From an uncultured Methanosarcinales archaeon (GTDB lineage Archaea; Nanobdellota; Nanobdellia; Woesearchaeales; GW2011-AR4), in assembly GCA_964436645.1 (NCBI GenBank), contig CAYTDO010000003.1, positions 939 to 64,938 of the forward strand: DNA of 64,000 nucleotides. The letters are read 5' to 3'. The first letter of the stretch is position 1, and each line of letters starts with the position of its first letter. Positions 6,779 through 36,820 of the stretch are shown one piece after another. The position numbers and the translations under genes were made by a program. The notes under the pieces are model-generated. The model had not been told where the DNA came from. It searched no databases and was given only the letters and a program-made list of their open reading frames with translations.

Positions 6779-7157
6779 TTTAATCTTAAAATAAGAAGAA
6801 AACTTCCTTTATAAACTTTTCTATTTTTGTTATCTTTAAGTAGTAAAAATATTATTTAAAGCCTGCGCCTCTAATCAAAATATGGAGATTGATAAGGATA
6901 TATTTAAAGCAATAATAAAGCCAAATAGCAGGAAAAATGAATAAGGTGTTTTGACAACAATAAAGGCGCTTATATTATACATATTAAGGAAAAAGCAGAG
7001 GGCAACAAGGCAAACATTGAACTTATAAGATTCTTATCAAAGGATTTAGGTAAAAGGGCAAGAATAAAATCAGGCCTTAAATCCAAAATAAAGATTATAG
7101 AAACTTATAAATAATAAACATTTAAATATTGATATCCTTAAGTATTGTAAAAAAGAG

Positions 7158-18808: not shown

Positions 18809-19840
18809 TTATTCAACATCATTACTTATTTTTCCGGTTATTTTTTTACCTGGCCATATCTTGCAGCCAGGCATTATGGCCACATTTTCTGCTTTTACGT
18901 TATCTCCTATAATAGCTCCGAGAGTTCCTGCCGATATTGATTTTCCTTTTATTACGGAAACTGCATTATTTTTTGCTTTGGCTGTGCCTTTGAAATAAAC
19001 ATTTTCTCCAATTATGGAATTTTCTATTACTGAGTTTTTTTCTATGATTGAGTTGTCCATGATTATTGAGTTTTTAATGCTGCCCTTTATCCTGCAATTT
19101 TTTCCAATAGATGAATTTTCAGCCTCTCCGGAAATTTCTGAGCTGCTTTCAATTGAATTTTTCCCGTTTCTTATTTCCCTATCAGCTTCCAATAAATCCC
19201 AGGGGTAGCTTATCTGCAGGCATGAGGAGCTGTGGACGCAATGCACACTGCCACGATTAGCAAGATGCCTTATTGCGTCGGTTATCTCGTATTCATTCCT
19301 TTCTGATTTTTTCAGTTTCTTAAGAAGCTCGAATATTTTTTTATCTAATGAGTATAAGGCGCAGCTTGCTAAATCTGAAGGAGGATTTTTTGGCTTCTCC
19401 ATGATATTTTTTACCAGGCCATTTTTTTCAATGATAACGCCAAAAATCTCAGGGTTTTTTACTTTTTTTGCCAAGATTGAATATTTATGCTTTGAAACTT
19501 CTTTTATGTCTTGTTTTGAATAAATATTATCACCCATAAGGAGAAGGAACCTGCCATTGATGTGCTTCTCTAAGATTGAAACTGCATGGCCAGTCCCAAG
19601 CTGCTCTTTTTGCTCAATAAGCTTTATATTCAGGTTTTTGCAGTTTTCTTTGACGAACTTTTCCATCATCTCTTTTTTGTAGCCCACAACAATGATTATT
19701 TCGCCTGATACTTCTTTTAGGGCTTCAAGGTTATATTCAAGGATGGTTTTGTTTGCCGCCTTAAGCAGCGGCTTGGGCCTTGTCAAAGTCAAAGGGAATG
19801 TCCTTGTTGAGCTTCCTGCCGCAAGAATCACGGATTGCAT
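18809..19840 (-). CDS. sugar-1-phosphate nucleotidyltransferase with a C-terminal left-handed beta-helix (GlmU-like bifunctional architecture)
   Basis: N-terminal ILAAGSSTRTFPLTLTRPKPLL (GxGTR-type). The C-terminus has many hexapeptide repeats (IGKNCRIKGSIKNSIIMDNSIIEKNSVIENSIIG...). Confidence 0.7.
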   Translation of the reverse strand: MQSVILAAGSSTRTFPLTLTRPKPLLKAANKTILEYNLEALKEVSGEIIIVVGYKKEMMEKFVKENCKNLNIKLIEQKEQLGTGHAVSILEKHINGRFLLLMGDNIYSKQDIKEVSKHKYSILAKKVKNPEIFGVIIEKNGLVKNIMEKPKNPPSDLASCALYSLDKKIFELLKKLKKSERNEYEITDAIRHLANRGSVHCVHSSSCLQISYPWDLLEADREIRNGKNSIESSSEISGEAENSSIGKNCRIKGSIKNSIIMDNSIIEKNSVIENSIIGENVYFKGTAKAKNNAVSVIKGKSISAGTLGAIIGDNVKAENVAIMPGCKIWPGKKITGKISNDVE

Positions 19841-28190: not shown

Positions 28191-29612
28191 ATGAATACAG
28201 CAAGAAGATTAACTGCAAATTTTTTGGTCCTTGCATTCTCTGAGTTCTTTTCTAAGGCAATGCAGCTGGTGGTTTTTGTTTACATTGCAAGAATCCTTGG
28301 GAAAGAAAGCTTCGGCCTTTTCAGTTTTGGGCTTGCTTTTGGGCTGTTAGCAGCTATAATCGCGGACTTTGGATTGAGCTCCCTGATTGTAAGGGAGATA
28401 AGCAGGAGCAGGAAAGACGCGGAAAAATATCTTTCCAATGCTATTGCAATAAAAATTGCGCTTTCACTAATCACTGTAGGCTTATCTTTTCTGATATTAA
28501 ATATAATTGGCTATGGCAGCCAGGAAAAAACTATTGCATATGTGATGCTAGCTTTCGCAATATTGCAGACTTTTACAGACATCTATTGCTCGATATTCAG
28601 GGCATTTGAGCGGATGCACTATGATGCGTCAATAAAAATACTGAGGATGGTGCTGCTGGCTGGAATTGTATTTTTTGCTCTTAGCGGCAATTCTTCTTTG
28701 GTAACTTTATCCTCATCTTTCCTTTTAGCGGAGATTATAGTTTTGGTGGTAGCTATTATATTGGTTTATTTTAAATTTGTAAAGATAAGCCTGGATTTTA
28801 ATCTTTTGTTGCTGAAAAAACTGCTTAATGAAGGGATGTTTTTTTTCCTGTCAATTGCGTTTGCAGGTCTTTTCCTGTATATTGATATAATCATGCTTTC
28901 GAAACTTGGTTCGTCATCTGAGGTTGGAGTTTATGCCGCTGCATCAAATATAGTCCTTGCATTGCTTTCAATACCTATGATGTATGGGAATGCAATTTAT
29001 CCGGTTATATCACGATTTTACATAAATTCTAAAGAAAGCCTAAGGTTTGTTTACGAGCGCTCGTTCAAGTACATGCTCATCCTTGGAATTGCAGTTTCAG
29101 CAGGAATTTTCGCAACTTCAGATAAAATAATAGGGGTTTTTTATGGAAGTGAATACGCAGCTTCTGCAATTGTGTTGTCAATAATAGCCTGGCAATTATG
29201 CCTCAGGTTCCCAAATATCATATCTGGAGTGACTTTATCTTCGACAGACAAGCAGCGCTCCAGGGTTTTAAGCCAGGGGCTCATTGTACTGGTAAAAGTG
29301 GCGCTTAATTTGCTGCTTATACCCATATATGGAATCGTAGGCGCTGCACTTGCGACATTGCTAACAGAAGCAGTATTTTTTGTCGCATACAACTTCTTTA
29401 TTTCAAGATATGGAATAAGGATAGACTACATAAAGCCAGTCATCAAGCCTGCAATAGCTGCATTAATCATGATAGCAGTACTTTATTTTATAGGAGATTT
29501 TTTTATTTCGGTTGTTTTGGGGGCAATTATTTACATCTCGGCAATTCTTTTATTGAAAACATTTGATGCAGAAGATAGAAAGATGATAGATAAGATAGTA
29601 AAGAATTCTTAG
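28191..29612 (+). CDS. polysaccharide/oligosaccharide flippase (Wzx-like, MOP superfamily)
   Basis: 473 aa with about 12-14 TM helices and a Wzx-like N-terminus. Confidence 0.75.
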   Translation: MNTARRLTANFLVLAFSEFFSKAMQLVVFVYIARILGKESFGLFSFGLAFGLLAAIIADFGLSSLIVREISRSRKDAEKYLSNAIAIKIALSLITVGLSFLILNIIGYGSQEKTIAYVMLAFAILQTFTDIYCSIFRAFERMHYDASIKILRMVLLAGIVFFALSGNSSLVTLSSSFLLAEIIVLVVAIILVYFKFVKISLDFNLLLLKKLLNEGMFFFLSIAFAGLFLYIDIIMLSKLGSSSEVGVYAAASNIVLALLSIPMMYGNAIYPVISRFYINSKESLRFVYERSFKYMLILGIAVSAGIFATSDKIIGVFYGSEYAASAIVLSIIAWQLCLRFPNIISGVTLSSTDKQRSRVLSQGLIVLVKVALNLLLIPIYGIVGAALATLLTEAVFFVAYNFFISRYGIRIDYIKPVIKPAIAALIMIAVLYFIGDFFISVVLGAIIYISAILLLKTFDAEDRKMIDKIVKNS

Positions 29613-29972
29613 AATGTGTTTAGCAGCTTCAAATCTAATTAGAGAATACCATTCAGATTTGTATTGCCTTGCCTTAAAGTCATGTAGCTTTGTGGTTTTG
29701 TCATATTCTTTGCCAGTATAATCAAATCTAGTTGTTTCTCCTCCCTGTATCGGCTCGCCAAACGGCGAATAAAGACTCTCCTCAACCACATCCCCATTCT
29801 GGTCAGTAATCAAAGAAGTTGAACCCAAGTGATCAGCATGGTAGAAATACTTTGTTTCCCTTAATTTTTCATTATTGGAATTGAACAATAAATACCATGA
29901 AGCTTTATCAAGAATGTTTAATGATTTATTGTAAACAAACGAATAATTCTCGTATTTTTCATCCGCTGAAAT
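29550..29972 (-). pseudogene. remnant of an RHS/YD-repeat protein (RHS repeat-associated core only; 5'-truncated, no ATG; toxin domain absent)
   Basis: The translation ...NYSFVYNKSLNILDKASWYLLFNSNNEKLRETKYFYHADHLGSTSLITDQNGDVVEESLYSPFGE...RFDYTGKEYDKTTKLHDFKARQYKSEWY matches the conserved C-terminal RHS core. The frame opens after a stop with no ATG. The ORF track begins at a TTG. The protein ends about 25 aa after the core. Confidence 0.6.
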
Positions 29973-30000
29973 GAGAACATTTTATGTAATCAATTTTACC

Positions 30001-30225
30001 CTAATTTAAATATTGCCTAATATCTATCTTTTTTATTTTAATAATCAAAAAAATTAGAAAATTGAAGACAATAACAAAACTCAAGCTTCTAATGAATAGA
30101 AATAAAGTAGAGTCATTAGTTTCTTCCTCAATTAAGAATAGTGTATGATAATAAGGAGCAATAAACACCATAATATTCAATAAAACATAGATTAAGATTA
30201 CACTGTATTTCTTAATTTTGCTCAT
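30001..30225 (-). CDS. small hypothetical membrane protein (74 aa)
   Basis: Two TM helices. Adjacent to the RHS remnant. Confidence 0.3.
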   Translation of the reverse strand: MSKIKKYSVILIYVLLNIMVFIAPYYHTLFLIEEETNDSTLFLFIRSLSFVIVFNFLIFLIIKIKKIDIRQYLN

Positions 30226-30339
30226 ATTAAACTACTAAAAGGCTCTATTTATAAAATTTTTTAAATTTTAATATTCTTTAAACAAGAAAAGTTGAAAATA
30301 ATTCACCGTCCACTTATGCCCTTTTCTTCCCCAATATTC

Positions 30340-30684
30340 TTATTTTTTACCTCCTTTTTTTGCTGCCTGTCGTTGCTTATTAATAATTTTAGCAGCTAAT
30401 GCCTCGCTTGCTGCCCTTTGTTCAGATGTTTTTAAAGTGCTACCTCCTGCTGACTTGATGACTTGTTGTATAGAATTGCTACCGAGAGTGCTTGTACCCC
30501 CTCCGCTTCCGCTTGAAGACCAACTATTACTTGCAACCATTGCTTTATTACTATTATCTACTCCATTATTAAAGACATTTTGCAGATAATAATTAGCACC
30601 TATACTAGCAATTTGTTGCCCAATAAATTTTATGTTATTAATGGTAGTAAGACTATTCCCCATAAACATCCTGAGTTTTATCAT
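30340..30684 (-). CDS. small Gly/Ser/Asn-rich hypothetical protein with a basic C-terminus
   Basis: 114-aa ORF. The adjacent upstream ORF (30653-30847) carries a signal peptide, so the two may be one frameshifted secreted protein. Confidence 0.3.
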   Translation of the reverse strand: MIKLRMFMGNSLTTINNIKFIGQQIASIGANYYLQNVFNNGVDNSNKAMVASNSWSSSGSGGGTSTLGSNSIQQVIKSAGGSTLKTSEQRAASEALAAKIINKQRQAAKKGGKK

Positions 30685-30847
30685 AAAATGAAGTCATGCA
30701 AGTATCTTTCTCTTCAAGGCTTATGGAAGGAGTTACTTGTGTATTCTTAGAGATAATATTAGTAAACGAGCTTAACTGGCTTAATGCCGTTATAGAGAGC
30801 AAAATGGCAATAACTGACATAGCTATAACTAAATTTATCTTTTTCAT
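30653..30847 (-). CDS. small signal-peptide-bearing hypothetical protein (64 aa)
   Basis: The N-terminus MKKINLVIAMSVIAILLSITALSQ is signal-peptide-like. Confidence 0.3.
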   Translation of the reverse strand: MKKINLVIAMSVIAILLSITALSQLSSFTNIISKNTQVTPSISLEEKDTCMTSFYDKTQDVYGE

Positions 30848-31014: not shown

Positions 31015-31947
31015 TTAACTTTTAGAAGCAAACCATTCAATCGTCTTGTTAATGCCGTCTTCCAATTGGACTTTCGGCTCCCAGCCAAGCTCTTTCCTTG
31101 CTTTTGAAATATCGGGCCTTCTGACTTTTGGATCATCAGTTGGCAGATTCTCATAAATTATCCTGCTTGTGCTTTTGGCAAGTTTTTTTATTATTCCTGC
31201 AAACTCACCTATAGTATGCTCTTCCGGATTTCCCAGGTTTACCGGGTCATTTATTTTTGAGAGCATTAGCTTGTAGATTCCATTTATCAAATCATCAACA
31301 TAACAAAAGCTCCTGGTCTGGTTTCCATCGCCATAGACGGTTATTGGGCTGTTATTCAGGGCCTGGGTAATGAAATTAGGAACAACTCTTCCATCGTTCT
31401 TTCTCATCCTCGGGCCATAGGTGTTGAAAATTCTCGCGATTCTTGTATCAACTTTATGTATCCTATGGTAGGCCATGACGAGCGCTTCCGCAAACCTTTT
31501 TGCTTCATCATAGCAGCCCCTTATTCCGACAGGATTTACATTGCCCCAATAGGTTTCAGGCTGAGGGTTTACAAGAGGATCACCATAAACCTCGGATGTT
31601 GATGCTAAGAGGTATTTTGCTTTTTTTGCCAAAGCCAACCCCAAAGTGTTATGTGTTCCAAGGCTTCCAGCTTTCAATGTCTGTATTGGAATCTTTTGAT
31701 AATCGATAGGAGATGCTGCACTTGCAAAATGAAGGATATAGTCAATTTTTTCTTCTATAGAAATATGCTTGGAGATATCATGGCTGATAAATGCAAAGTT
31801 CTTATTTATTTCGAGATGCTCTATATTTTTTTTATTTCCAGTAATAAGGTTGTCCATACATAGAACTCGGAAACCTTTGCTCAGCAAGAATTCGCATAAA
31901 TGGCTTCCTATGAAGCCTGCGCCGCCTGTTACTAAAACTATTGCCAT
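31015..31947 (-). CDS. UDP-glucuronate decarboxylase (UDP-xylose synthase) / NAD-dependent epimerase-dehydratase
   Basis: [13 protein letters not shown], a YxxxK catalytic motif and an extended SDR fold. Closest to UXS-type enzymes. Confidence 0.75.
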
Positions 31948-31949
31948 TT

Positions 31950-32714
31950 TTATCGGTTGAATGTCTTGTCTGCTTTTTCGAGCTGCTCTAAAGTGCCTAT
32001 GTCATACCATTCTTTATCTATTTCATGGGCATAGACCTGTTCTTTTTTGTGGAGCCACTCTATAAAGCTGCCGCTTTTATCAGGATTGCTGCCTTCATCA
32101 ATATATTTTTGCATCAATCGAAGAGTTTTTTTTTGAAACATGTAAATGCCAGTGGATATTAGAGTAGATTCCGGGTTTTGCGGCTTCTCAACAAATTTGG
32201 CTATTATCCCGTTTTTTACTGAAACTACGCCATAGTTTTTGGCTAATTCCTTATTGTTGACATCATAAAGCGCGATGACATCTGATTTTGTATTTTTGAA
32301 TATGCCAAGCATTTCCTTTAGGGAAAAATCAAAAATATTATCGCCAGCAACAACTAAAATATCGTCGCTTATTTTTTTGTTTTTTATGGCAAATTGTATG
32401 TCTCCAATTGATCCTAAACGGTCGTCGTTGCTGCTTGTTCCGTCATTTATTATATTTATCTGGAATCTTGAGCTATACTTTTTTTCCCAATCCAGAAAGT
32501 TCTTTGTAAATTTGTTGTTTGTGATTATATAAATCTTAGAGATCTCTTTTAGCTCTTCTATCTTGTCCAGTATATGCTCTATCATTACCTTGCCAGCTAC
32601 TTCAAGCAATGGCTTGGGTGTGTTTTCCGTCAATGGGTAAAGCCTTGTTGCGTACCCAGCTGCAAGCACTAAAGCTTCAATTTTTATCACCTTTGAAGAC
32701 TGGGTTCCTGCCAA
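31950..32714 (-). CDS. sugar-1-phosphate nucleotidyltransferase (short form)
   Basis: [23 protein letters not shown] matches GxGTRLxPLT. 254 aa. Confidence 0.75.
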
Positions 32715-33993
32715 TGCTTATGTAAGTAAAGCCTTCATTTTTCATTTCTTCTGGATTGTAAATATTACGGCCGTCAATTATTATTGGAGCTTTTAGGAGA
32801 TATTTTATTTTTTTCATATCAATTTCCTTGAATTCGTTCCATTCTGTCAATATAAGCATGGCATCTGCATTCTTGCATGCTTCGTAAGCATCCCTGCAAA
32901 ATTTTATGTCTTTAAAAAGGGAATTTGCCTTTCCCATGGATGCAGGATCATATGCATTTATTTTTGCCCCTGATTTCTGCAATTCATTGATTATGTAAAC
33001 GCTAGGGGCAAATCGCATATCATCAGTGTTAGGCTTGAATGCCAATCCCAATGCTGCGAGGGTTTTTCCTTTAAGGTCTCCTAAATTGTTTTTTACTTTT
33101 TCAGCAAAATCTTTTTTTTGCTCATCATTTATGTCATTTGTTGCCTTAAGGAGCTTGTAGTCATAGCCATAATCCTCTGCTATCTTTATGAAAGCCTGCG
33201 AGTCTTTTGGAAAGCATGAACCTCCATACCCTATCCCAGCATTAAGAAAAGATCTCCCTATTCTTTTATCGTAGCCCATCCCTTCGGCAACTTTTTCGAC
33301 ATCTGCGCCGGAGAATTCACAGATTTTTGCGACTGAATTAATAAAAGATATTTTAGTTGCTAAAAATGCATTTGAAGCGTGTTTTATCAGCTCTGCACTT
33401 TTTATGTCCGTGATTATTAGGGGGGATTTTATAGGGCTGTAGAGATTTTTCATTATCTCAATTGATTTATTGCTTTCTGCCCCTATAACAATCCTGTCCG
33501 GCTCTAGAGTGTCTTTTATTGCAGTCCCTTCCCTTAAAAATTCCGGGTTGCTTACGACATCAAATGATATGCCGGGCTTAATGTTATTTTTGATGATTTT
33601 TTTTACTTTTTCTCCAGTCTCTACCGGCACGGTGCTTTTATGCACTATTACTTTGTAAGAATCCATGTTTTGAGCTACTTCTAATGCAACAGCTTCCACA
33701 TATTTCAGCTCAGTTTGCCAGTTTTCCTTTGGAGGAGTGCCTACACATATGAAAATAATATCACCATGCCCTATTACTTCCTTGTTATCTGCGGTAAAAA
33801 TAAGCCTTTTTTCCTTGACATTCCTGTCTACAATTTCCTTTAGCCCAGGCTCGTATATTGGCATTATCCCATGCTTTAGGCCCTCTATCTTCTTTTTGTC
33901 TGCATCTGCAGCCATGACATCATTGCCTAGCTCTGCGAGTACTGCTGCAGTGGATAATCCTACATATCCTGTCCCTATCACTGAAATCTTCAT
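32677..33993 (-). CDS. ugd: UDP-glucose 6-dehydrogenase
   Basis: MKISVIGTGYVGLSTAAVLA, a catalytic Cys region (GGSCFPKD) and the UDPGDH C-terminal domain. Confidence 0.9.
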   Translation of the reverse strand: MKISVIGTGYVGLSTAAVLAELGNDVMAADADKKKIEGLKHGIMPIYEPGLKEIVDRNVKEKRLIFTADNKEVIGHGDIIFICVGTPPKENWQTELKYVEAVALEVAQNMDSYKVIVHKSTVPVETGEKVKKIIKNNIKPGISFDVVSNPEFLREGTAIKDTLEPDRIVIGAESNKSIEIMKNLYSPIKSPLIITDIKSAELIKHASNAFLATKISFINSVAKICEFSGADVEKVAEGMGYDKRIGRSFLNAGIGYGGSCFPKDSQAFIKIAEDYGYDYKLLKATNDINDEQKKDFAEKVKNNLGDLKGKTLAALGLAFKPNTDDMRFAPSVYIINELQKSGAKINAYDPASMGKANSLFKDIKFCRDAYEACKNADAMLILTEWNEFKEIDMKKIKYLLKAPIIIDGRNIYNPEEMKNEGFTYISIGRNPVFKGDKN

Positions 33994-34090
33994 TTTATAG
34001 CTAAAAAAGCAAAATTATTTAAATATCTTACCATTATCCTACTTTATACTACTAAATATTAGTTAATTTTTAAAGAACTACACCAACACT

Positions 34091-34888
34091 ATGCCAAAAA
34101 CAAAAATCTCAATAACAATAAATGAAAAGACTTTGCAGGATATAGACTCCATAGTGGACAATATCTACATCCGGAACAGGTCGCAAGCTATTGAGCATCT
34201 TGCAAAGTATGCCCTTGGCGAGAATAAGACTGCAGTAATACTGCTTGGCGGGGATGAAGAGCATCTCAAGGCGGCAAAAGATGTCTTTAGGCCTACTGTC
34301 AAAATAAATAATTCTACAGTTATCGGACTAGCTGTCAAGAAACTGAGGGAGAACAATTTTAGGTCAATATATATTGTGGCGAGGCATAATCTCCTTACAA
34401 AAATTTTTGAAATTTTGAAGGATGGAACTGATTATGGGGTCAAGATAAGCTATGTAGAGGAAAAGGCTTCAAATGGCTCTGCAGATTCCTTAAGGCTGCT
34501 TAAGGGCAAAATAAAAAATAATTTCCTCATTGTATATGGAGACATAATATTCAACAAGATAAATATCGAAGGATTATGGAATGACCATATAAAGCAGAAT
34601 GCAGCCGCTACAATAATGCTTACAACTTCTCCAAGGCCAAGCGAGAAAGGCACTGTCAAGGTTGAGGGCAATAAGGTTTTGTCATTTACCCAAAAACCAA
34701 AGGAGTCTGACATCTATCTTGTATTTTCTCCGATATTTGTGGCGGATCCCCAGATACTGGAATACTCGGGAAAAAGCCTTGAATTTGATGTTTTCCCTGA
34801 GCTGGCGCAGAAAGGGCTGCTAAATGGCCACTTGAGCAGCGAGAAAGAAGTGCATGTGCATACATTGAAGAATTTGCCTAAAAATTAG
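34091..34888 (+). CDS. ribbon-helix-helix (CopG-like) DNA-binding domain fused to a nucleotidyltransferase-like domain with a degenerate GxGTR motif
   Basis: N-terminal KISITINEKTLQDIDSIVDNIYIRNRSQAIEHLAKYAL is an RHH. The remainder has an NTP_transferase fold (AVILLGG...DGTDYGVKISYVEE...IVYGDII), but the GxGTRL motif is replaced by GGDEEHLK. Confidence 0.55.
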   Translation: MPKTKISITINEKTLQDIDSIVDNIYIRNRSQAIEHLAKYALGENKTAVILLGGDEEHLKAAKDVFRPTVKINNSTVIGLAVKKLRENNFRSIYIVARHNLLTKIFEILKDGTDYGVKISYVEEKASNGSADSLRLLKGKIKNNFLIVYGDIIFNKINIEGLWNDHIKQNAAATIMLTTSPRPSEKGTVKVEGNKVLSFTQKPKESDIYLVFSPIFVADPQILEYSGKSLEFDVFPELAQKGLLNGHLSSEKEVHVHTLKNLPKN

Positions 34889-34898
34889 TAAAAAAGGT

Positions 34899-35010
34899 GG
34901 ACAGCTTCCCTAGTTTCCCATGCATTAACACAGTACAGCTAGGAACGGAGGCTTGTTTAACTTCGGAGTTCGGAATGGGATCCGGTGGAACCATGCCCCT
35001 ATGGCCGTCC
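34899..35010 (-). rRNA. 5S ribosomal RNA
   Basis: The minus-strand sequence GGACGGCCAUAGGGGCAUGGUUCCACCGGAUCCCAUUCCGAACUCCGAAGUUAAAC...GGGAAGCUGUCC shows 5S hallmarks (CCGAAC, AGUUAA loop region, helix I pairing GGACGGC/GCUGUCC). Confidence 0.85.
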
Positions 35011-35033
35011 AGCAAATAAGGAGTAATTCTTGC

Positions 35034-35075: not shown

Positions 35076-35495
35076 TTAAGAAGCCTTGTTCTTTTTACTT
35101 TTTTGTTTCGGTTTATTCTTAATTACCCTACCTATTTGCCTACCAATAGGCTTAAATTCACTTGGTGAAAAAACATCACTCTTTGCGTTATTACACCAAT
35201 AACATATTAACCCACAATTTCCTTCTGTATATCTTTGTTTAGATTCTTTTTTGTCAATCTCTAAAACATATCCCCTTTTTCGCTTGGTTTTATCATAATT
35301 TACTCTAAATTTTTTTGATTCTTCCTTAGTAATGCCGCAAATATAGCATTTCTTATATGTTTTATACCATTCAATGAATTTTTTTCTGCCCCAATGCTTA
35401 TCTAAGTCCTTGTCTCTCTGTTTTATAGAGCTATACCGCTTCGAAATATGTTTCTCTTCTTCAGAATATTTCTTAGACATTGACATAACTTTCAA
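35076..35495 (-). CDS. HNH endonuclease-family protein (basic, 139 aa)
   Basis: C-terminal LEIDKKESKQRYTEGNCGLICYWCNNAKSD fits the HNH/beta-beta-alpha-Me pattern (E-x-D...N...C-x2-C-N). There is an additional upstream CYIC pair. Confidence 0.5.
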   Translation of the reverse strand: MKVMSMSKKYSEEEKHISKRYSSIKQRDKDLDKHWGRKKFIEWYKTYKKCYICGITKEESKKFRVNYDKTKRKRGYVLEIDKKESKQRYTEGNCGLICYWCNNAKSDVFSPSEFKPIGRQIGRVIKNKPKQKSKKNKAS

Positions 35496-36820
35496 ACTTC
35501 CCTTAAATAGCCCCAGTTATGCAGCTTATCAGAATCCTCAGACCATCTGTCTCCAATGTCTTTTCTATAGTACATATTAGGAATCAGTATATTGTCAATC
35601 TTTTTATACACATTCTTCTTTGCTTCCCTCATTGTGGAGCCGATGCCTACAACTATTAAAATAACTCCAGTATCGCCAGTTATAAGCCATTCATCATCAA
35701 CCATCTTGACATCCTCAATATGAATTCCTTCCATGTTGGGCTTTTTGAAAAGGACTACTGCATCTTTTGAGTGTATCTCAAACATGTTCCTGTCATCATA
35801 GGGGAAAGGGGGGACGACAATCCTAACTCCAATCTGGAATCCGGATTTCGTCTTAAAATTCTTCAGTTCTCCTGTGGCAAGATCGTAAAGAAATTCTCCA
35901 ATTGGGCTTGTTATGCCTTCCTGCTGTATTGAGATAGTTGGATACCCAAATCTTGCAGTAAATTCAAGAGGATAAATGCCGTTGGTGTTCACGATGCAGT
36001 TAAGATCAAAATATCCCACATAATGCTCCGCCCTCAGAGTCTCTTCCATCTTTTTGATTGTAGCATTAAATAACCTGTTTGGGCCTGACCAGAACATGAG
36101 CGTTCCCATTTCGCCGGTGCTCGGCCCTATGTTTCCAGGGAAAAGCTTCTTATGCTCGAAGTTTACATTTATTGGGTAAACGAATTCATGCCCGTTAAAA
36201 AAAGCACCAACTGCCACTTCAACTCCAACGACCCTTTTTTGGAGCTGGAAAATCATAGCTTTTTTCCAAGCTTTCTTGTAAGCTTCCAAGACCTGAATTA
36301 CGTCATGGCCGTCTTCCTGCTCTCCGACAAAGAGCATATTTTTTATGTTCTGGACTTCTCCGGAAGGTTTTATCACATACCTGGATGGATTTAATTTTAC
36401 AAATTCCATGGCATCATCAAAATTATTGAAATTCCAGCTTGGCATTGTCCCTATATCATGCCTTTTCAGCTCTTCCTGGCCAAATTGACGGTCATCTTCA
36501 AGCTTATCAGTATATGCAGTCCCGCCGATGACAAGCTTCCCTTCTTTTCTTAATTTAGCGGCTTTCTTGCCATGCCCTAAAACATCGTCGAATACAATAA
36601 TGTCTGCCCACGAAACTTCTTTTTCCCAATCGGTTACTTTTGGAACAAATCCATCCGCAACTTCTTTTTCAGCAGGATCTTCTATGAAATACTTGGCTTC
36701 ATGCCCTTCTTTAAGGACTTGCCACGCTATATCGCTTATCAAAGCGTCAATAGAAACAAAAAGGAATTTTTTCTTTGAGCCATTTCCATTATTTTTCTGC
36801 ATTTTTTTATGAATATTCAA
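35492..36820 (-). CDS. purD: phosphoribosylamine--glycine ligase
   Basis: ATP-grasp enzyme with GPSTGEMG (compare GPNTGGMG) and PurD-like N- and C-terminal domains. Confidence 0.8.
   Translation of the reverse strand: MNIHKKMQKNNGNGSKKKFLFVSIDALISDIAWQVLKEGHEAKYFIEDPAEKEVADGFVPKVTDWEKEVSWADIIVFDDVLGHGKKAAKLRKEGKLVIGGTAYTDKLEDDRQFGQEELKRHDIGTMPSWNFNNFDDAMEFVKLNPSRYVIKPSGEVQNIKNMLFVGEQEDGHDVIQVLEAYKKAWKKAMIFQLQKRVVGVEVAVGAFFNGHEFVYPINVNFEHKKLFPGNIGPSTGEMGTLMFWSGPNRLFNATIKKMEETLRAEHYVGYFDLNCIVNTNGIYPLEFTARFGYPTISIQQEGITSPIGEFLYDLATGELKNFKTKSGFQIGVRIVVPPFPYDDRNMFEIHSKDAVVLFKKPNMEGIHIEDVKMVDDEWLITGDTGVILIVVGIGSTMREAKKNVYKKIDNILIPNMYYRKDIGDRWSEDSDKLHNWGYLREV

Follow-up and report, generated by a model that had tools for sequence, protein, structure and literature searches.

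Ribbon-helix-helix (RHH) repressors of the CopG, Arc, MetJ and omega type bind short operators made up of tandem repeats or of repeats about one helical turn apart, and these operators overlap the core promoter and serve in autoregulation. The operator of NikR is an inverted repeat with a long spacer. The DNA-binding domain of PutA is an RHH domain and the enzyme half of NadR is a nucleotidyltransferase, and GDP-mannose pyrophosphorylase (GMPP) proteins carry a C-terminal β-helix domain. To our knowledge almost no regulators have been characterized in the DPANN archaea, which are uncultured and have reduced genomes. A precedent for a pseudo-enzyme of the nucleotidyltransferase (NTase) fold that acts as a sensor is GMPPA which, according to PMC11228364, senses the nucleotide-sugar product of its pathway. 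Here we describe a gene encoding an RHH domain followed by an NTase-fold domain (RHH-NTase), which lies in a 64-kb stretch of Woesearchaeal DNA (the window, the whole of the sequence analyzed). Full-text literature searches for RHH together with nucleotidyltransferase, sugar nucleotidyltransferase or DPANN found no published description of an RHH-NTase fusion.

Results

The RHH-NTase gene and its neighbors

The gene, its two domains and the three genes of the divergent operon are as follows.

34091–34888, + strand: RHH-NTase gene, an open reading frame with an ATG start (265 residues plus stop codon)
34091–34231, + strand: RHH DNA-binding domain of the NikR/CopG type, residues 1–47 (family profile, Pfam RHH_1, structural model)
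34232–34885, + strand: NTase-fold domain, residues 48–265, read as a non-catalytic sensor (PF00483, Foldseek, residue loss)
34247–34270, + strand: signature loop in degenerate form, reading G53-G-D-E-E-H-L-K60 instead of G-G-x-G-T-R-L-x (alignments to RmlA and to intact RHH-NTases)
32677–33993, − strand: ugd, UDP-glucose 6-dehydrogenase, first gene of the divergent operon (N-terminal, central and C-terminal Pfam UDPG_MGDP_dh domains; NCBIfam TuaD, 583 bits)
31950–32714, − strand: ntp, canonical sugar-1-phosphate NTase with an intact motif (...PKPLL), second operon gene (PF00483, E=2.4e-40)
31015–31947, − strand: uxs, UDP-glucuronate decarboxylase (UDP-xylose synthase), third operon gene (human UXS1, 4gll/2b69, E=1.6e-109)

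The codon at 34091 is the first in-frame start after a stop codon, and the N-termini of the homologues open in the same manner with M-x-K-x-K-I-S-I-T-I. There were 842 homologues, the best 120 of which showed 77–89% identity; those of the Woesearchaeota are named either 'hypothetical protein' or 'NDP-sugar pyrophosphorylase family protein'. Homology to the RHH plus NTase arrangement was collinear and full length (118 full-length cluster representatives; top 150 matches, residues 1–3 to about 264), and the window protein fits the size of about 250–290 residues seen in this unnamed fusion family of DPANN archaea, Altiarchaeota and CPR bacteria.

The sequence-only reading had placed ugd, an NTase gene and a UDP-xylose synthase gene beside and divergent from RHH-NTase, and profile searches confirmed the three identities. 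The ugd product also scored above the cut-off for the NCBIfam NDP-sugar dehydrogenase subfamily, the operon NTase is AglF-like (E=1e-28) and the next-best family for the uxs product after UXS1 reached only 1e-37. The same reading spoke of a glycan locus, of which the three-gene UDP-xylose operon is present and a large glycan locus is not: apart from this operon and one flippase, the surroundings in the window are mostly housekeeping genes. Of 80 species, about 73 have ugd upstream and divergent of the RHH-NTase gene, as a rule with the genes for the NTase and UDP-xylose synthase after it; the genes downstream of RHH-NTase vary between species. RHH-NTase is the best-conserved gene of its neighborhood across the Woesearchaeota/Nanoarchaeia, with between-species identities of 77–81% compared with 63–73% for Ugd, 52–62% for the NTase and 47–60% for NFACT, and this order of conservation is also seen over 80 species.

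The N-terminal RHH domain

Taken alone, the window protein gave a weak match to the NikR model NCBIfam TIGR02793 (E=0.002, residues 5–47) and no Pfam RHH match above threshold. A profile built from 40 family N-termini, when compared with the PDB, matched the RHH domain of E. coli NikR (1q5v) with E=3.8e-11, antitoxin 8u12 with E=4e-6, P. horikoshii NikR (2bj1) with E=1.4e-6 and CopG (1b01) with E=0.006, and 38 of these 40 N-termini matched Pfam RHH_1 (PF01402). The AlphaFold2 monomer model (mean pLDDT 88.4), the input of which was 81 sequences that included distant relatives with intact motifs, has an extended segment at residues 1–11 followed by helices at 12–24 and 30–42, a strand-helix-helix arrangement. 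Within the strand K3-T-K5-I-S7-I-T9, residues K5, S7 and T9 align with R3, T5 and T7 of NikR, and the sequence K-I-S-I-T-I fits the alternating-polar pattern of the superfamily. Among 79 orthologues, residues K3, K5, S7, T9, R30, S31 and E35 show little or no variation. By profile match and topology we assign the N-terminus to the RHH (CopG/NikR/Arc-MetJ) superfamily.

The NTase domain has lost catalytic residues

Residues 48–228 match Pfam NTP_transferase (PF00483) with E=2.7e-19, at a score of 70 bits, whereas the neighboring canonical NTase reaches 139 bits. The best PDB sequence match of the domain was RmlA (3hl3, E=6e-11). Foldseek comparison of the model with the PDB (E about 1e-17, TM 0.70–0.75) returned tlr0611, GDP-mannose pyrophosphorylases, RmlA and ADP-glucose pyrophosphorylase as neighbors, with GMPPA and GMPPB chains also close. 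Both the RHH and the sugar-NTase fold proposed from the sequence alone are thus borne out, as is the replacement of the GxGTRL loop by GGDEEHLK: G53-G54-D-E-E-H58-L-K aligns with RmlA G10-G11-S-G-T-R15-L-H.

Among the 79 orthologues the signature loop occurs in 76 different sequences, none of which contains G-x-G-T-R. The position of RmlA R15, H58 in the window protein, is occupied by K (22), H (18), R (8), S (8), N (5) or Q (4), so that some orthologues (8 of 79) do have arginine there. Opposite RmlA K25 stands R67, and the orthologues have R (61), S (7), M (4), K (3), C (3) or N (1). The position of the second Mg2+-binding aspartate (RmlA D225) is H255 here and histidine in all 78 of the 78 orthologues compared. 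The first (RmlA D110) corresponds to D151, which is kept in 70 of 79 and replaced by histidine in nine. In the counterpart of the E-K-P motif (RmlA E161-K162), K202 and P203 are invariant and the glutamate is exchanged for an invariant Q201. The pocket residues common to NTases are E123-E124...G129, Y-G-D151 and Q-K202-P, and the invariant positions of the domain comprise Q201-K202, E123/E124, G129, K186-G187, F212-S213 and E231. A new invariant motif, E-K-E-x-H-x-H (E251, E253, H255 and H257), stands where the enzymes have G-Q-W-F-D-T-G. Hence, of the features of active PF00483 enzymes the window protein has the fold and lacks the G-x-G-T-R motif, the catalytic lysine and the full pair of Mg2+-binding aspartates. 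The catalytic arginine and lysine positions are free of constraint in the Woesearchaeal orthologues, and the domain has presumably lost catalysis, although residual or altered catalysis is still conceivable because D151 and K202 (RmlA D110 and K162) are kept.

Full-length relatives with intact catalytic motifs occur in Altiarchaeota, other DPANN archaea and CPR bacteria, and thus fusion of the RHH and NTase domains predates the loss of catalysis. One altiarchaeal RHH-NTase (P0283), which retains all of the catalytic motifs, is 33% identical to the window protein over its full length (E=4e-39), and the altiarchaeal gene adjoins a phosphomannomutase/phosphoglucomutase gene. For the nearest of these intact relatives, the top-scoring family is mannose-1-P guanylyltransferase. 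Derivation of the sensor domain from a recent duplication of the neighboring NTase gene was ruled out, the two proteins being 22% identical over 122 residues.

These retained and novel residues could also be read as a working enzyme in the style of PutA, BirA or NadR that still forms a nucleotide-activated product, and in which E251, E253, H255 and H257 together with D151 and K202 would form a non-canonical active site in a protein that also binds its own promoter. The very strong purifying selection on the NTase domain outside the loop and the invariance of the new motif are in keeping with such an enzyme-repressor, as are the intact-motif fusions of Altiarchaeota and CPR, which are probably enzyme-regulators. 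However, the residues responsible for holding the NTP phosphates and stabilizing the transition state (G-x-G-T-R and K25) are now acidic or freely varying, and the presumed target operon already encodes a canonical NTase. We regard a bifunctional protein as unlikely.

A second possibility is that the dead NTase domain acts on a protein rather than on DNA, allosterically modulating the operon NTase much as GMPPA does GMPPB or GalF does GalU, with the RHH as mainly an oligomerization module or a minor second function. The closeness of GMPPA and GMPPB chains in the Foldseek comparison and the presence, in most species, of a gene for an active NTase at a distance of about 1.4 kb point in this direction. 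According to PMC11228364, GMPPA itself is a paralogue without catalytic activity, binding GDP-mannose and regulating GMPPB. Against it, the base-contacting residues of the RHH are near-invariant and are matched by a conserved phased DNA repeat at the promoter (below), and several species keep the regulator gene where ntp is missing beside ugd (for example L045, L063, L083 and L085). Moreover, RHH-NTase ends directly after the NTase domain at 265 residues, compared with about 360 for the GMPP matches from Foldseek, has no Hexapep (β-helix) Pfam match and so is without the C-terminal left-handed β-helix of the GMPP/AGPase matches (about 360–420 residues). A protein-level regulatory subunit therefore seems to us improbable.

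A conserved repeat block between the divergent promoters

Cross-species alignment of the spacer between ugd and the RHH-NTase gene gave a near-invariant block of about 33 bp in 77 of 81 loci, flanked by spacer that does not align. In the window it occupies 34018–34053 and consists of a TATA-like box followed by three repeats with 10–11 bp phasing.

34018–34025, strand not assigned: TATA-like box TTTAAATA (octamer TTTAAATA or TATAAATA in 50 of 55 loci)
34024–34032, + strand: candidate operator repeat R1, TATCTTACC, which abuts the TATA box at the expected position of the ugd BRE (near-invariant in 77 of 81 loci)
34035–34043, + strand: candidate operator repeat R2, TATCCTACT, which begins 11 bp after the start of R1 and is the most conserved element
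34045–34053, + strand: candidate operator repeat R3, TATACTACT, a weaker repeat that begins 10 bp after the start of R2

The TATA-like box has its center about 28 bp away from the start codon of ugd and is therefore probably the TATA of a ugd promoter that gives a leaderless transcript; the distance from the octamer to the ugd ATG is 21–27 nt in 38 of 55 loci. The three repeats have the consensus TATC(T/C)TAC(C/T) in direct orientation. In more distant species R3 reads TATCCGATA or TATGCGATA, and R2 is retained where R1 has decayed (L083, L086). The units have no exact 6-mer in common and thus escaped an exact direct-repeat search; they were recognized from the cross-species alignment and a degenerate pattern search. 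The latter found the R1-R2 pair once in the 64-kb window and in none of 100 shuffles, and no further copy of the block was present in the window at up to three mismatches. The palindromic operator anticipated by the sequence-only reading was not borne out: the inverted repeats of the spacer are weak and AT-rich (70–83% complementarity) and were rejected because they are not conserved across species, and the candidate operator instead consists of direct repeats that follow one another at intervals of one helical turn.

The block is found once per locus in constant orientation. It remains with the regulator gene where ugd has been displaced (L040, L046, L052, L061, L066 and L076) and with ugd where the regulator has been displaced or is not nearby (L077, L115, L119 and L131). 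In L023 and L032 the regulator gene lies behind an unrelated gene and the repeat block is absent, hence autoregulation through the block is not universal. In many species the repeats are situated upstream of the BRE and TATA elements of the two promoters, a position that is compatible with activation as well; in some species they fall between the TATA box and the beginning of the regulator gene. Co-location and co-conservation suggest R1–R3 as the binding site of RHH-NTase.

That the block is instead just a strong core promoter (BRE, TATA and initiator) active in both directions, or is bound by another factor, with RHH-NTase binding elsewhere as, for example, a global regulator or chromatin-associated protein, would agree with the TATA box at the right distance for ugd, with the two species that carry the gene without the block and with a conservation of RHH-NTase above that of the neighboring enzymes, but we give this little credence given that about 25 bp past the TATA box are near-invariant with an internal period of 10–11 bp, neither of which a core promoter needs, that no other promoter of the window has the block, and that matches away from ugd and the regulator in a metagenome scan were mostly 11-bp satellite arrays or unrelated sequence without TATA context.

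Discussion

As an RHH domain and an apparently dead NTase domain adjoin a conserved repeat site between both promoters, RHH-NTase is most likely the transcriptional switch of the UDP-xylose pathway. We think it reasonably probable that the protein is a one-component transcription factor acting, probably as a repressor, on its own gene and on the ugd-ntp-uxs operon. The view that it is a regulator rather than an enzyme, first taken from the sequence alone, is supported by catalytic-loop positions that are unconstrained beside near-invariant DNA-reading residues in the 79 orthologues, by the recurrent divergent pairing with ugd and by the operator-like block in the spacer.

In the mechanism we propose, the RHH would dimerize, in indirect agreement with the conserved strand residues and the phased repeats, and the resulting two-stranded sheet would enter the major groove at R1–R3 with K5, S7 and T9. 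Spaced 10–11 bp apart, these repeats would face the same side of the helix. They start within the ugd TATA box and cover the BRE of that promoter, where the bound protein would most likely stand in the way of TFB/TBP or RNA polymerase and so repress both the regulator gene and the divergent operon, the predicted route of which is glucose-1-phosphate to UDP-glucose to UDP-glucuronate to UDP-xylose. The ancestor of the sensor would be an enzyme resembling mannose-1-P guanylyltransferase, to which the RHH was already attached; the sensor appears to have lost the phosphate-gripping loop, the catalytic arginine and lysine and one Mg2+-binding aspartate. As the rest of the pocket is kept invariant, it probably binds a pathway metabolite, either a nucleotide sugar or a sugar phosphate and presumably the former, and such binding would be coupled to DNA affinity.

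More tentatively, RHH-NTase fusions may be an undescribed class of nucleotide-sugar-responsive transcription factors of DPANN archaea, Altiarchaeota and CPR bacteria that ranges from enzyme-repressors to pure sensors, with catalysis lost more than once. The Woesearchaeal branch would then be the first feedback regulator proposed for archaeal UDP-glucuronate/UDP-xylose synthesis, acting at a compact divergent promoter that in some species may have a single TATA for two leaderless genes, and E-K-E-x-H-x-H might mark a site for a ligand or metal that is not known from any NTase.

The locus offers a complete regulatory unit for testing (a protein, a candidate operator of about 30 bp and a three-gene target operon) that is conserved across a whole order-level lineage, and the near-invariant candidate operator can serve as a handy marker and as a reagent ready for in vitro experiments on the recombinant protein. 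Surface glycans draw on UDP-glucuronate and UDP-xylose, and since such glycans likely matter to organisms thought to depend on cell contact, a dedicated and strongly conserved switch on UDP-sugar supply would be biologically meaningful. If the proposal is correct, the NTase fold joins the known ligand-sensing domains of prokaryotic one-component regulators, and a single family shows how an enzyme with a DNA-binding tail became a dedicated sensor.

Comparison with known systems

RHH-NTase resembles CopG in that it matches the RHH family profile. However, CopG, Arc, MetJ and omega are small stand-alone proteins of bacteria, phages or plasmids, mostly without a ligand domain, whereas RHH-NTase is chromosomal, archaeal and fused to a large putative sensor domain. 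NikR is closer, being the best sequence match for the RHH and having the same order of N-terminal RHH and C-terminal ligand-sensing domain. The NikR sensor is a small ACT-like metal-binding tetramerization domain in place of a 220-residue NTase fold, and the candidate RHH-NTase repeats are direct and 10–11 bp apart, unlike the NikR operator. Membership in the NikR family was rejected because the ACT-like domain is absent: the NikR models match only residues 4–47, at 18 bits against a cut-off of 175, and the C-terminus is the NTase fold.

With RmlA, GDP-mannose pyrophosphorylase, GalU and AglF (PF00483) the protein has in common the fold and many pocket residues, and it differs from these enzymes in its additional RHH and in that G-x-G-T-R, the catalytic lysine and the second Mg2+ aspartate are lost or unconstrained. 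GMPPA, GalF and the gamma and epsilon subunits of eIF2B likewise combine an NTase fold and lost catalysis with a regulatory role, which for RHH-NTase is a prediction, but those proteins act by protein-protein contacts whereas RHH-NTase has a DNA-binding RHH. PutA, BirA and NadR, like RHH-NTase, join a DNA-binding domain to the domain of a metabolic enzyme, which reports on the pathway it belongs to. The enzyme family of RHH-NTase is unlike those of all three, and because its enzyme half appears catalytically dead the Woesearchaeal protein would be a pure sensor.

RHH and nucleotidyltransferase domains of the protein

The protein under study, called the regulator here for brevity, is encoded as follows.

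34091-34888, + strand, RHH-NTase ORF, 265 aa; the translation begins MPKTKISITINEKTL and contains VILLGGDEEHLKAAKDVFRPT

Databases name it 'hypothetical protein' or 'NDP-sugar pyrophosphorylase family protein', and no NCBIfam model matched it at that model's cut-off. Residues 48-228 match the Pfam family NTP_transferase (PF00483, E=2.7e-19), and the top solved relative by sequence is RmlA (glucose-1-phosphate thymidylyltransferase, 3hl3; E=6e-11). By itself the N-terminus gave only a weak NikR match (E=0.002, residues 5-47). A profile of 40 family N-termini matched the ribbon-helix-helix (RHH) domain of E. coli NikR with E=3.8e-11, P. horikoshii NikR with E=1.4e-6 and CopG with E=0.006, and 38 of the 40 matched Pfam RHH_1. 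This family-wide evidence settles the identity of the N-terminus. The AlphaFold2 model (81 input sequences, pLDDT 88.4, pTM 0.81) has residues 1-11 extended, helices at 12-24 and 30-42 and then a sugar-1-phosphate nucleotidyltransferase (NTase) fold, the nearest solved structures being tlr0611, GDP-mannose pyrophosphorylases, RmlA, GMPPA/GMPPB and ADP-glucose pyrophosphorylase (E ~1e-17, TM ~0.7). Both halves proposed by the sequence-only reading are thus borne out, the RHH by the NikR profile match and RHH_1, and the NTase fold by PF00483 and the structural neighbours of the model.

Drift of the catalytic site

The active site was mapped by alignment to P. aeruginosa and B. anthracis RmlA and to full-length intact-motif relatives, using the catalytic roles that we take the RmlA residues to have.

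Active-site positions of the window protein and their RmlA equivalents
G53-G54-D-E-E-H58-L; RmlA G10-G11-S-G-T-R15-L
R67; RmlA K25
E124; RmlA Q82
D151; RmlA D110
Q201-K202; RmlA E161-K162
H255; RmlA D225

The loop had been called degenerate, and the alignment of GGDEEHL to RmlA G-G-S-G-T-R-L agrees. We tabulated the site in 79 translated orthologues from 80 species-level genomes. The R15-equivalent position holds K (22), H (18), R (8), S (8), N (5) or Q (4) and the K25-equivalent position R (61), S (7), M (4), K (3) or C (3). The catalytic loop has 76 distinct sequences among the 79, none of which (0 of 79) is a G-x-G-T-R loop. The D225-equivalent position is His in all 78 orthologues that cover it, and the pocket residues E123/E124, G129, K186-G187, E192-G193, F199, Q201-K202-P203, F212-S213 and E231 are invariant. 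In place of the enzymes' G-Q-W-F-D-T-G the orthologues carry a new motif, S-S-E-K-E-x-H-x-H. The phosphate-gripping catalytic half of the site drifts freely and the remainder is tightly constrained. A drifting loop with a fixed pocket is the pattern that a ligand-binding pseudo-enzyme would have and is unexpected for an active pyrophosphorylase.

The RHH strand and helix-2 cap (K3, K5, S7, T9, R30, S31, E35) are essentially invariant in the same orthologues. Identity between the window and four relatives is 77-81% for the regulator, 74-83% for Uxs, 63-73% for Ugd, 52-62% for the NTase, 66-77% for an aminotransferase and 47-60% for NFACT; across the 80 species Ugd drops to 41-72% and the regulator keeps 56-81%.

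The divergent gene pair and its surroundings

Three genes run divergently from the regulator.

32677-33993, opposite strand to the regulator, ugd, UDP-glucose 6-dehydrogenase
31950-32714, opposite strand, ntp, canonical NTase
31015-31947, opposite strand, uxs, UDP-glucuronate decarboxylase, that is, UDP-xylose synthase (human UXS1, E=1.6e-109)

Upstream of the regulator on the opposite strand lies ugd in about 73 of the 80 species, mostly at 50-130 bp, usually followed by ntp and uxs. Downstream are a 5S rRNA gene, an HNH-like ORF and a purD-like gene in the window, and LemA/M48, MazE or NFACT directly in other genomes; as these genes vary, the divergent ugd-regulator pair is the stable unit. 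The divergent ugd, NTase and uxs genes described earlier are confirmed, but the glycan locus proposed around them is not a large one, the surroundings being mostly housekeeping (gyrA, scpB, CCA-adding enzyme). By the names of homologues, the window comes from a Woesearchaeota/Nanoarchaeia archaeon.

Several features of the region were recorded in passing. The listed TTG start of ntp (254 aa) overlaps the ugd end by 38 nt (32677-32714); with orthologues of 243-246 aa, translation probably begins a few codons further on. A lone 5S rRNA gene (34896-35012, - strand, Rfam 80.8 bits) lies convergently 8 nt past the regulator stop codon, at a place where the gene calls of the relatives examined have protein-coding genes; the 64-kb window gave no 16S, 23S rRNA or tRNA gene. 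Adjoining it is a 139-aa lysine-rich ORF (35076-35495, - strand) that contains paired Cys motifs and matches HNH weakly (E=0.024); the relatives examined lack it, and it may encode a small, mobile HNH endonuclease. The PurD-like ATP-grasp protein (35492-36820, - strand) has GARS_A and GARS_C domains and a divergent N-terminal region; scoring far under the purD cut-off (113 versus 288 bits), it is unlikely to be a standard glycinamide ribonucleotide synthetase. Between a flippase gene and uxs, an ORF with an RHS-core fragment (PF03527, E=5e-5) and three small ORFs, at least two hydrophobic, look like a remnant polymorphic toxin/immunity cassette inserted beside the sugar operon (29550-30847, - strand). 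A second NTase, archaeal GlmU-like and with a hexapeptide beta-helix at its C-terminus, lies 14 kb off (18809-19840, - strand), and the window therefore encodes at least three NTase-fold proteins. Homing elements interrupt the operon in related loci: L001 (3737-5692) encodes a 651-aa, intein-like Uxs with a faint LAGLIDADG_3 match between two sets of Epimerase/GDP_Man_Dehyd matches, and in L008 and L009 (5372-6538) a free-standing LAGLIDADG_2 ORF separates ugd from ntp.

A candidate operator in the spacer

We aligned 57 ugd-regulator spacers and then anchored 77 of 81 loci on the core, which gave ~33 near-invariant bases within spacer DNA that is otherwise unalignable. The consensus of this block is T(T/A)TAAATA-TCTTACC-n-TTATCCTAC-(T/C)-TTAT-n-C-(T/G)-A-(C/T); the more distant species have a second TATA-like box, TTTATATA, after it. 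The block combines the TATA octamer with three repeats.

34024-34032, R1, TATCTTACC
34035-34043, R2, TATCCTACT
34045-34053, R3, TATACTACT

The repeat starts are spaced 11 and 10 bp, so the repeats lie on one helix face. The 64-kb window has a single R1-R2 pair and none of 100 shuffles has one; the 22-mer has one site in the window even with 3 mismatches. Each matching locus has one block copy, which always faces the same way with respect to the regulator. Where a ~1 kb insertion separates the genes or ugd is missing, the block adjoins the regulator (L040, L046, L052, L061, L066, L076); L077 and L115 have the insertion on the other side and keep the block at ugd. Two loci have the block at ugd and no regulator gene within 2-7 kb (L119, L131), and in two species the regulator has moved behind another gene without the block (L023, L032). 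A metagenome-wide R1-R2 scan found mainly this locus: 39 matches had both genes nearby, 12 the regulator alone and 6 ugd alone. Away from both genes, most matches fell in 11-bp satellite arrays or in unrelated sequence that had no TATA context. Three metagenome contigs (L111, L116, L154) carry kilobase-long arrays of the 11-bp satellite ATTATCCTACC and variants, which matches the operator core by chance and is unrelated to the regulator locus.

Promoter geometry

The ugd start codon lies 21-27 nt from the TATA octamer in 38 of 55 loci (mode 22-23), which puts the octamer centre ~27 bp from the first base of the ATG. Archaeal promoters canonically have this spacing between TATA box and transcription start, and it implies a leaderless ugd mRNA. 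By its position R1 would occupy the ugd BRE; R2 and R3 lie farther upstream. The regulator promoter has two layouts. One, seen in many distant species, has a second TATA box beyond R3, spaced so that a leaderless start would be possible. In the other, seen in several species, the ATG lies 5-20 nt past the repeats; there a single TATA box would serve both directions, with the repeats between it and the regulator start. In four related loci (L041, L064, L067, L068; about 6950-7005) the divergent start codons are only ~50 bp apart and a lone TATA box is centred ~27-29 bp from each ATG, an arrangement suggestive of one bidirectional TATA for two leaderless genes. Both layouts would fit best with repression through occlusion of TFB/TBP or polymerase; activation from a position upstream of the BRE would also be compatible.

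Proposed mechanism

We propose that RHH dimers would read the phased repeats via K5, S7 and T9, and that the NTase-fold domains would supply oligomerization and a ligand pocket. Ligand occupancy would alter operator affinity and thereby set transcription of the regulator and ugd-ntp-uxs. That the protein is a DNA-binding regulator of the divergent promoter seems to us very likely; the full statement, with a non-catalytic sensor, we hold probable. A nucleotide sugar as ligand is a more tentative proposal. It would most plausibly be one from the pathway, the end product UDP-xylose, or UDP-glucuronate or UDP-glucose, the two grounds being gene context and the precedent of GMPPA, described in PMC11228364 as an NTase paralogue that is non-catalytic and binds GDP-mannose.

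Three other readings are to be set against the shared invariance of the strand residues and the phased repeats. A repressor that is still an active enzyme explains it less well than the mechanism proposed here, as does a regulator acting at the protein level like GMPPA or GalF. A generic promoter, with the protein acting elsewhere, likewise accounts for it less well.

The wider RHH-NTase family and its origin

Searched with a profile, 1.84 billion cluster representatives yielded 82 proteins at E<=1e-30 and 1120 at E<=1e-10; 118 of the best 150 matches were full-length and collinear with RHH-NTase. Named members come from Woesearchaeota, Aenigmarchaeota, Diapherotrites, Altiarchaeota, Nanoarchaeota and CPR bacteria, among them Nomurabacteria and Minisyncoccia. 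Many keep every catalytic motif (GGKGTRMRPxTYExPKP, EExxxLGTAGPL, NGDVL, EKPK, GQWFDTGT) and score highest as mannose-1-phosphate guanylyltransferase, those of Altiarchaeota lying directly upstream of a phosphomannomutase/phosphoglucomutase gene; other branches have the loop lost or deleted. The window protein shares 33% identity over its full length with an intact Altiarchaeal member (E=4e-39) and only 22% over 122 aa with the neighbouring NTase. The RHH-enzyme fusion is therefore ancestral, and the enzyme half appears to have turned into a sensor within the Woesearchaeal lineage.

Just before the start codons of intact-motif RHH-NTases from Altiarchaeota and a CPR bacterium lie GTATGAT-type or AGTAT-N3-ATACT-type elements (loci L090, 5920-6000; L091 and L092, 5950-6000), a hint that enzyme-bearing relatives may also autoregulate, via a different operator.

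Comparison with known systems

Full-text literature searches turned up no description of an RHH-NTase fusion. The DNA-binding half is a bona fide RHH with NikR as its nearest match; lacking the ACT-like domain, the protein is not itself a NikR. Nor is it classed as an active NTase: it has the fold and lacks three of the catalytic features that define the enzyme. In a lineage with almost no characterised regulation, it would be a one-component regulator whose sensor has a new fold and whose candidate operator is well defined. Functionally it resembles NikR as an RHH plus a sensor, and GMPPA and GalF as a dead NTase used as a metabolite sensor; the likeness to PutA, BirA and NadR applies to its intact relatives.
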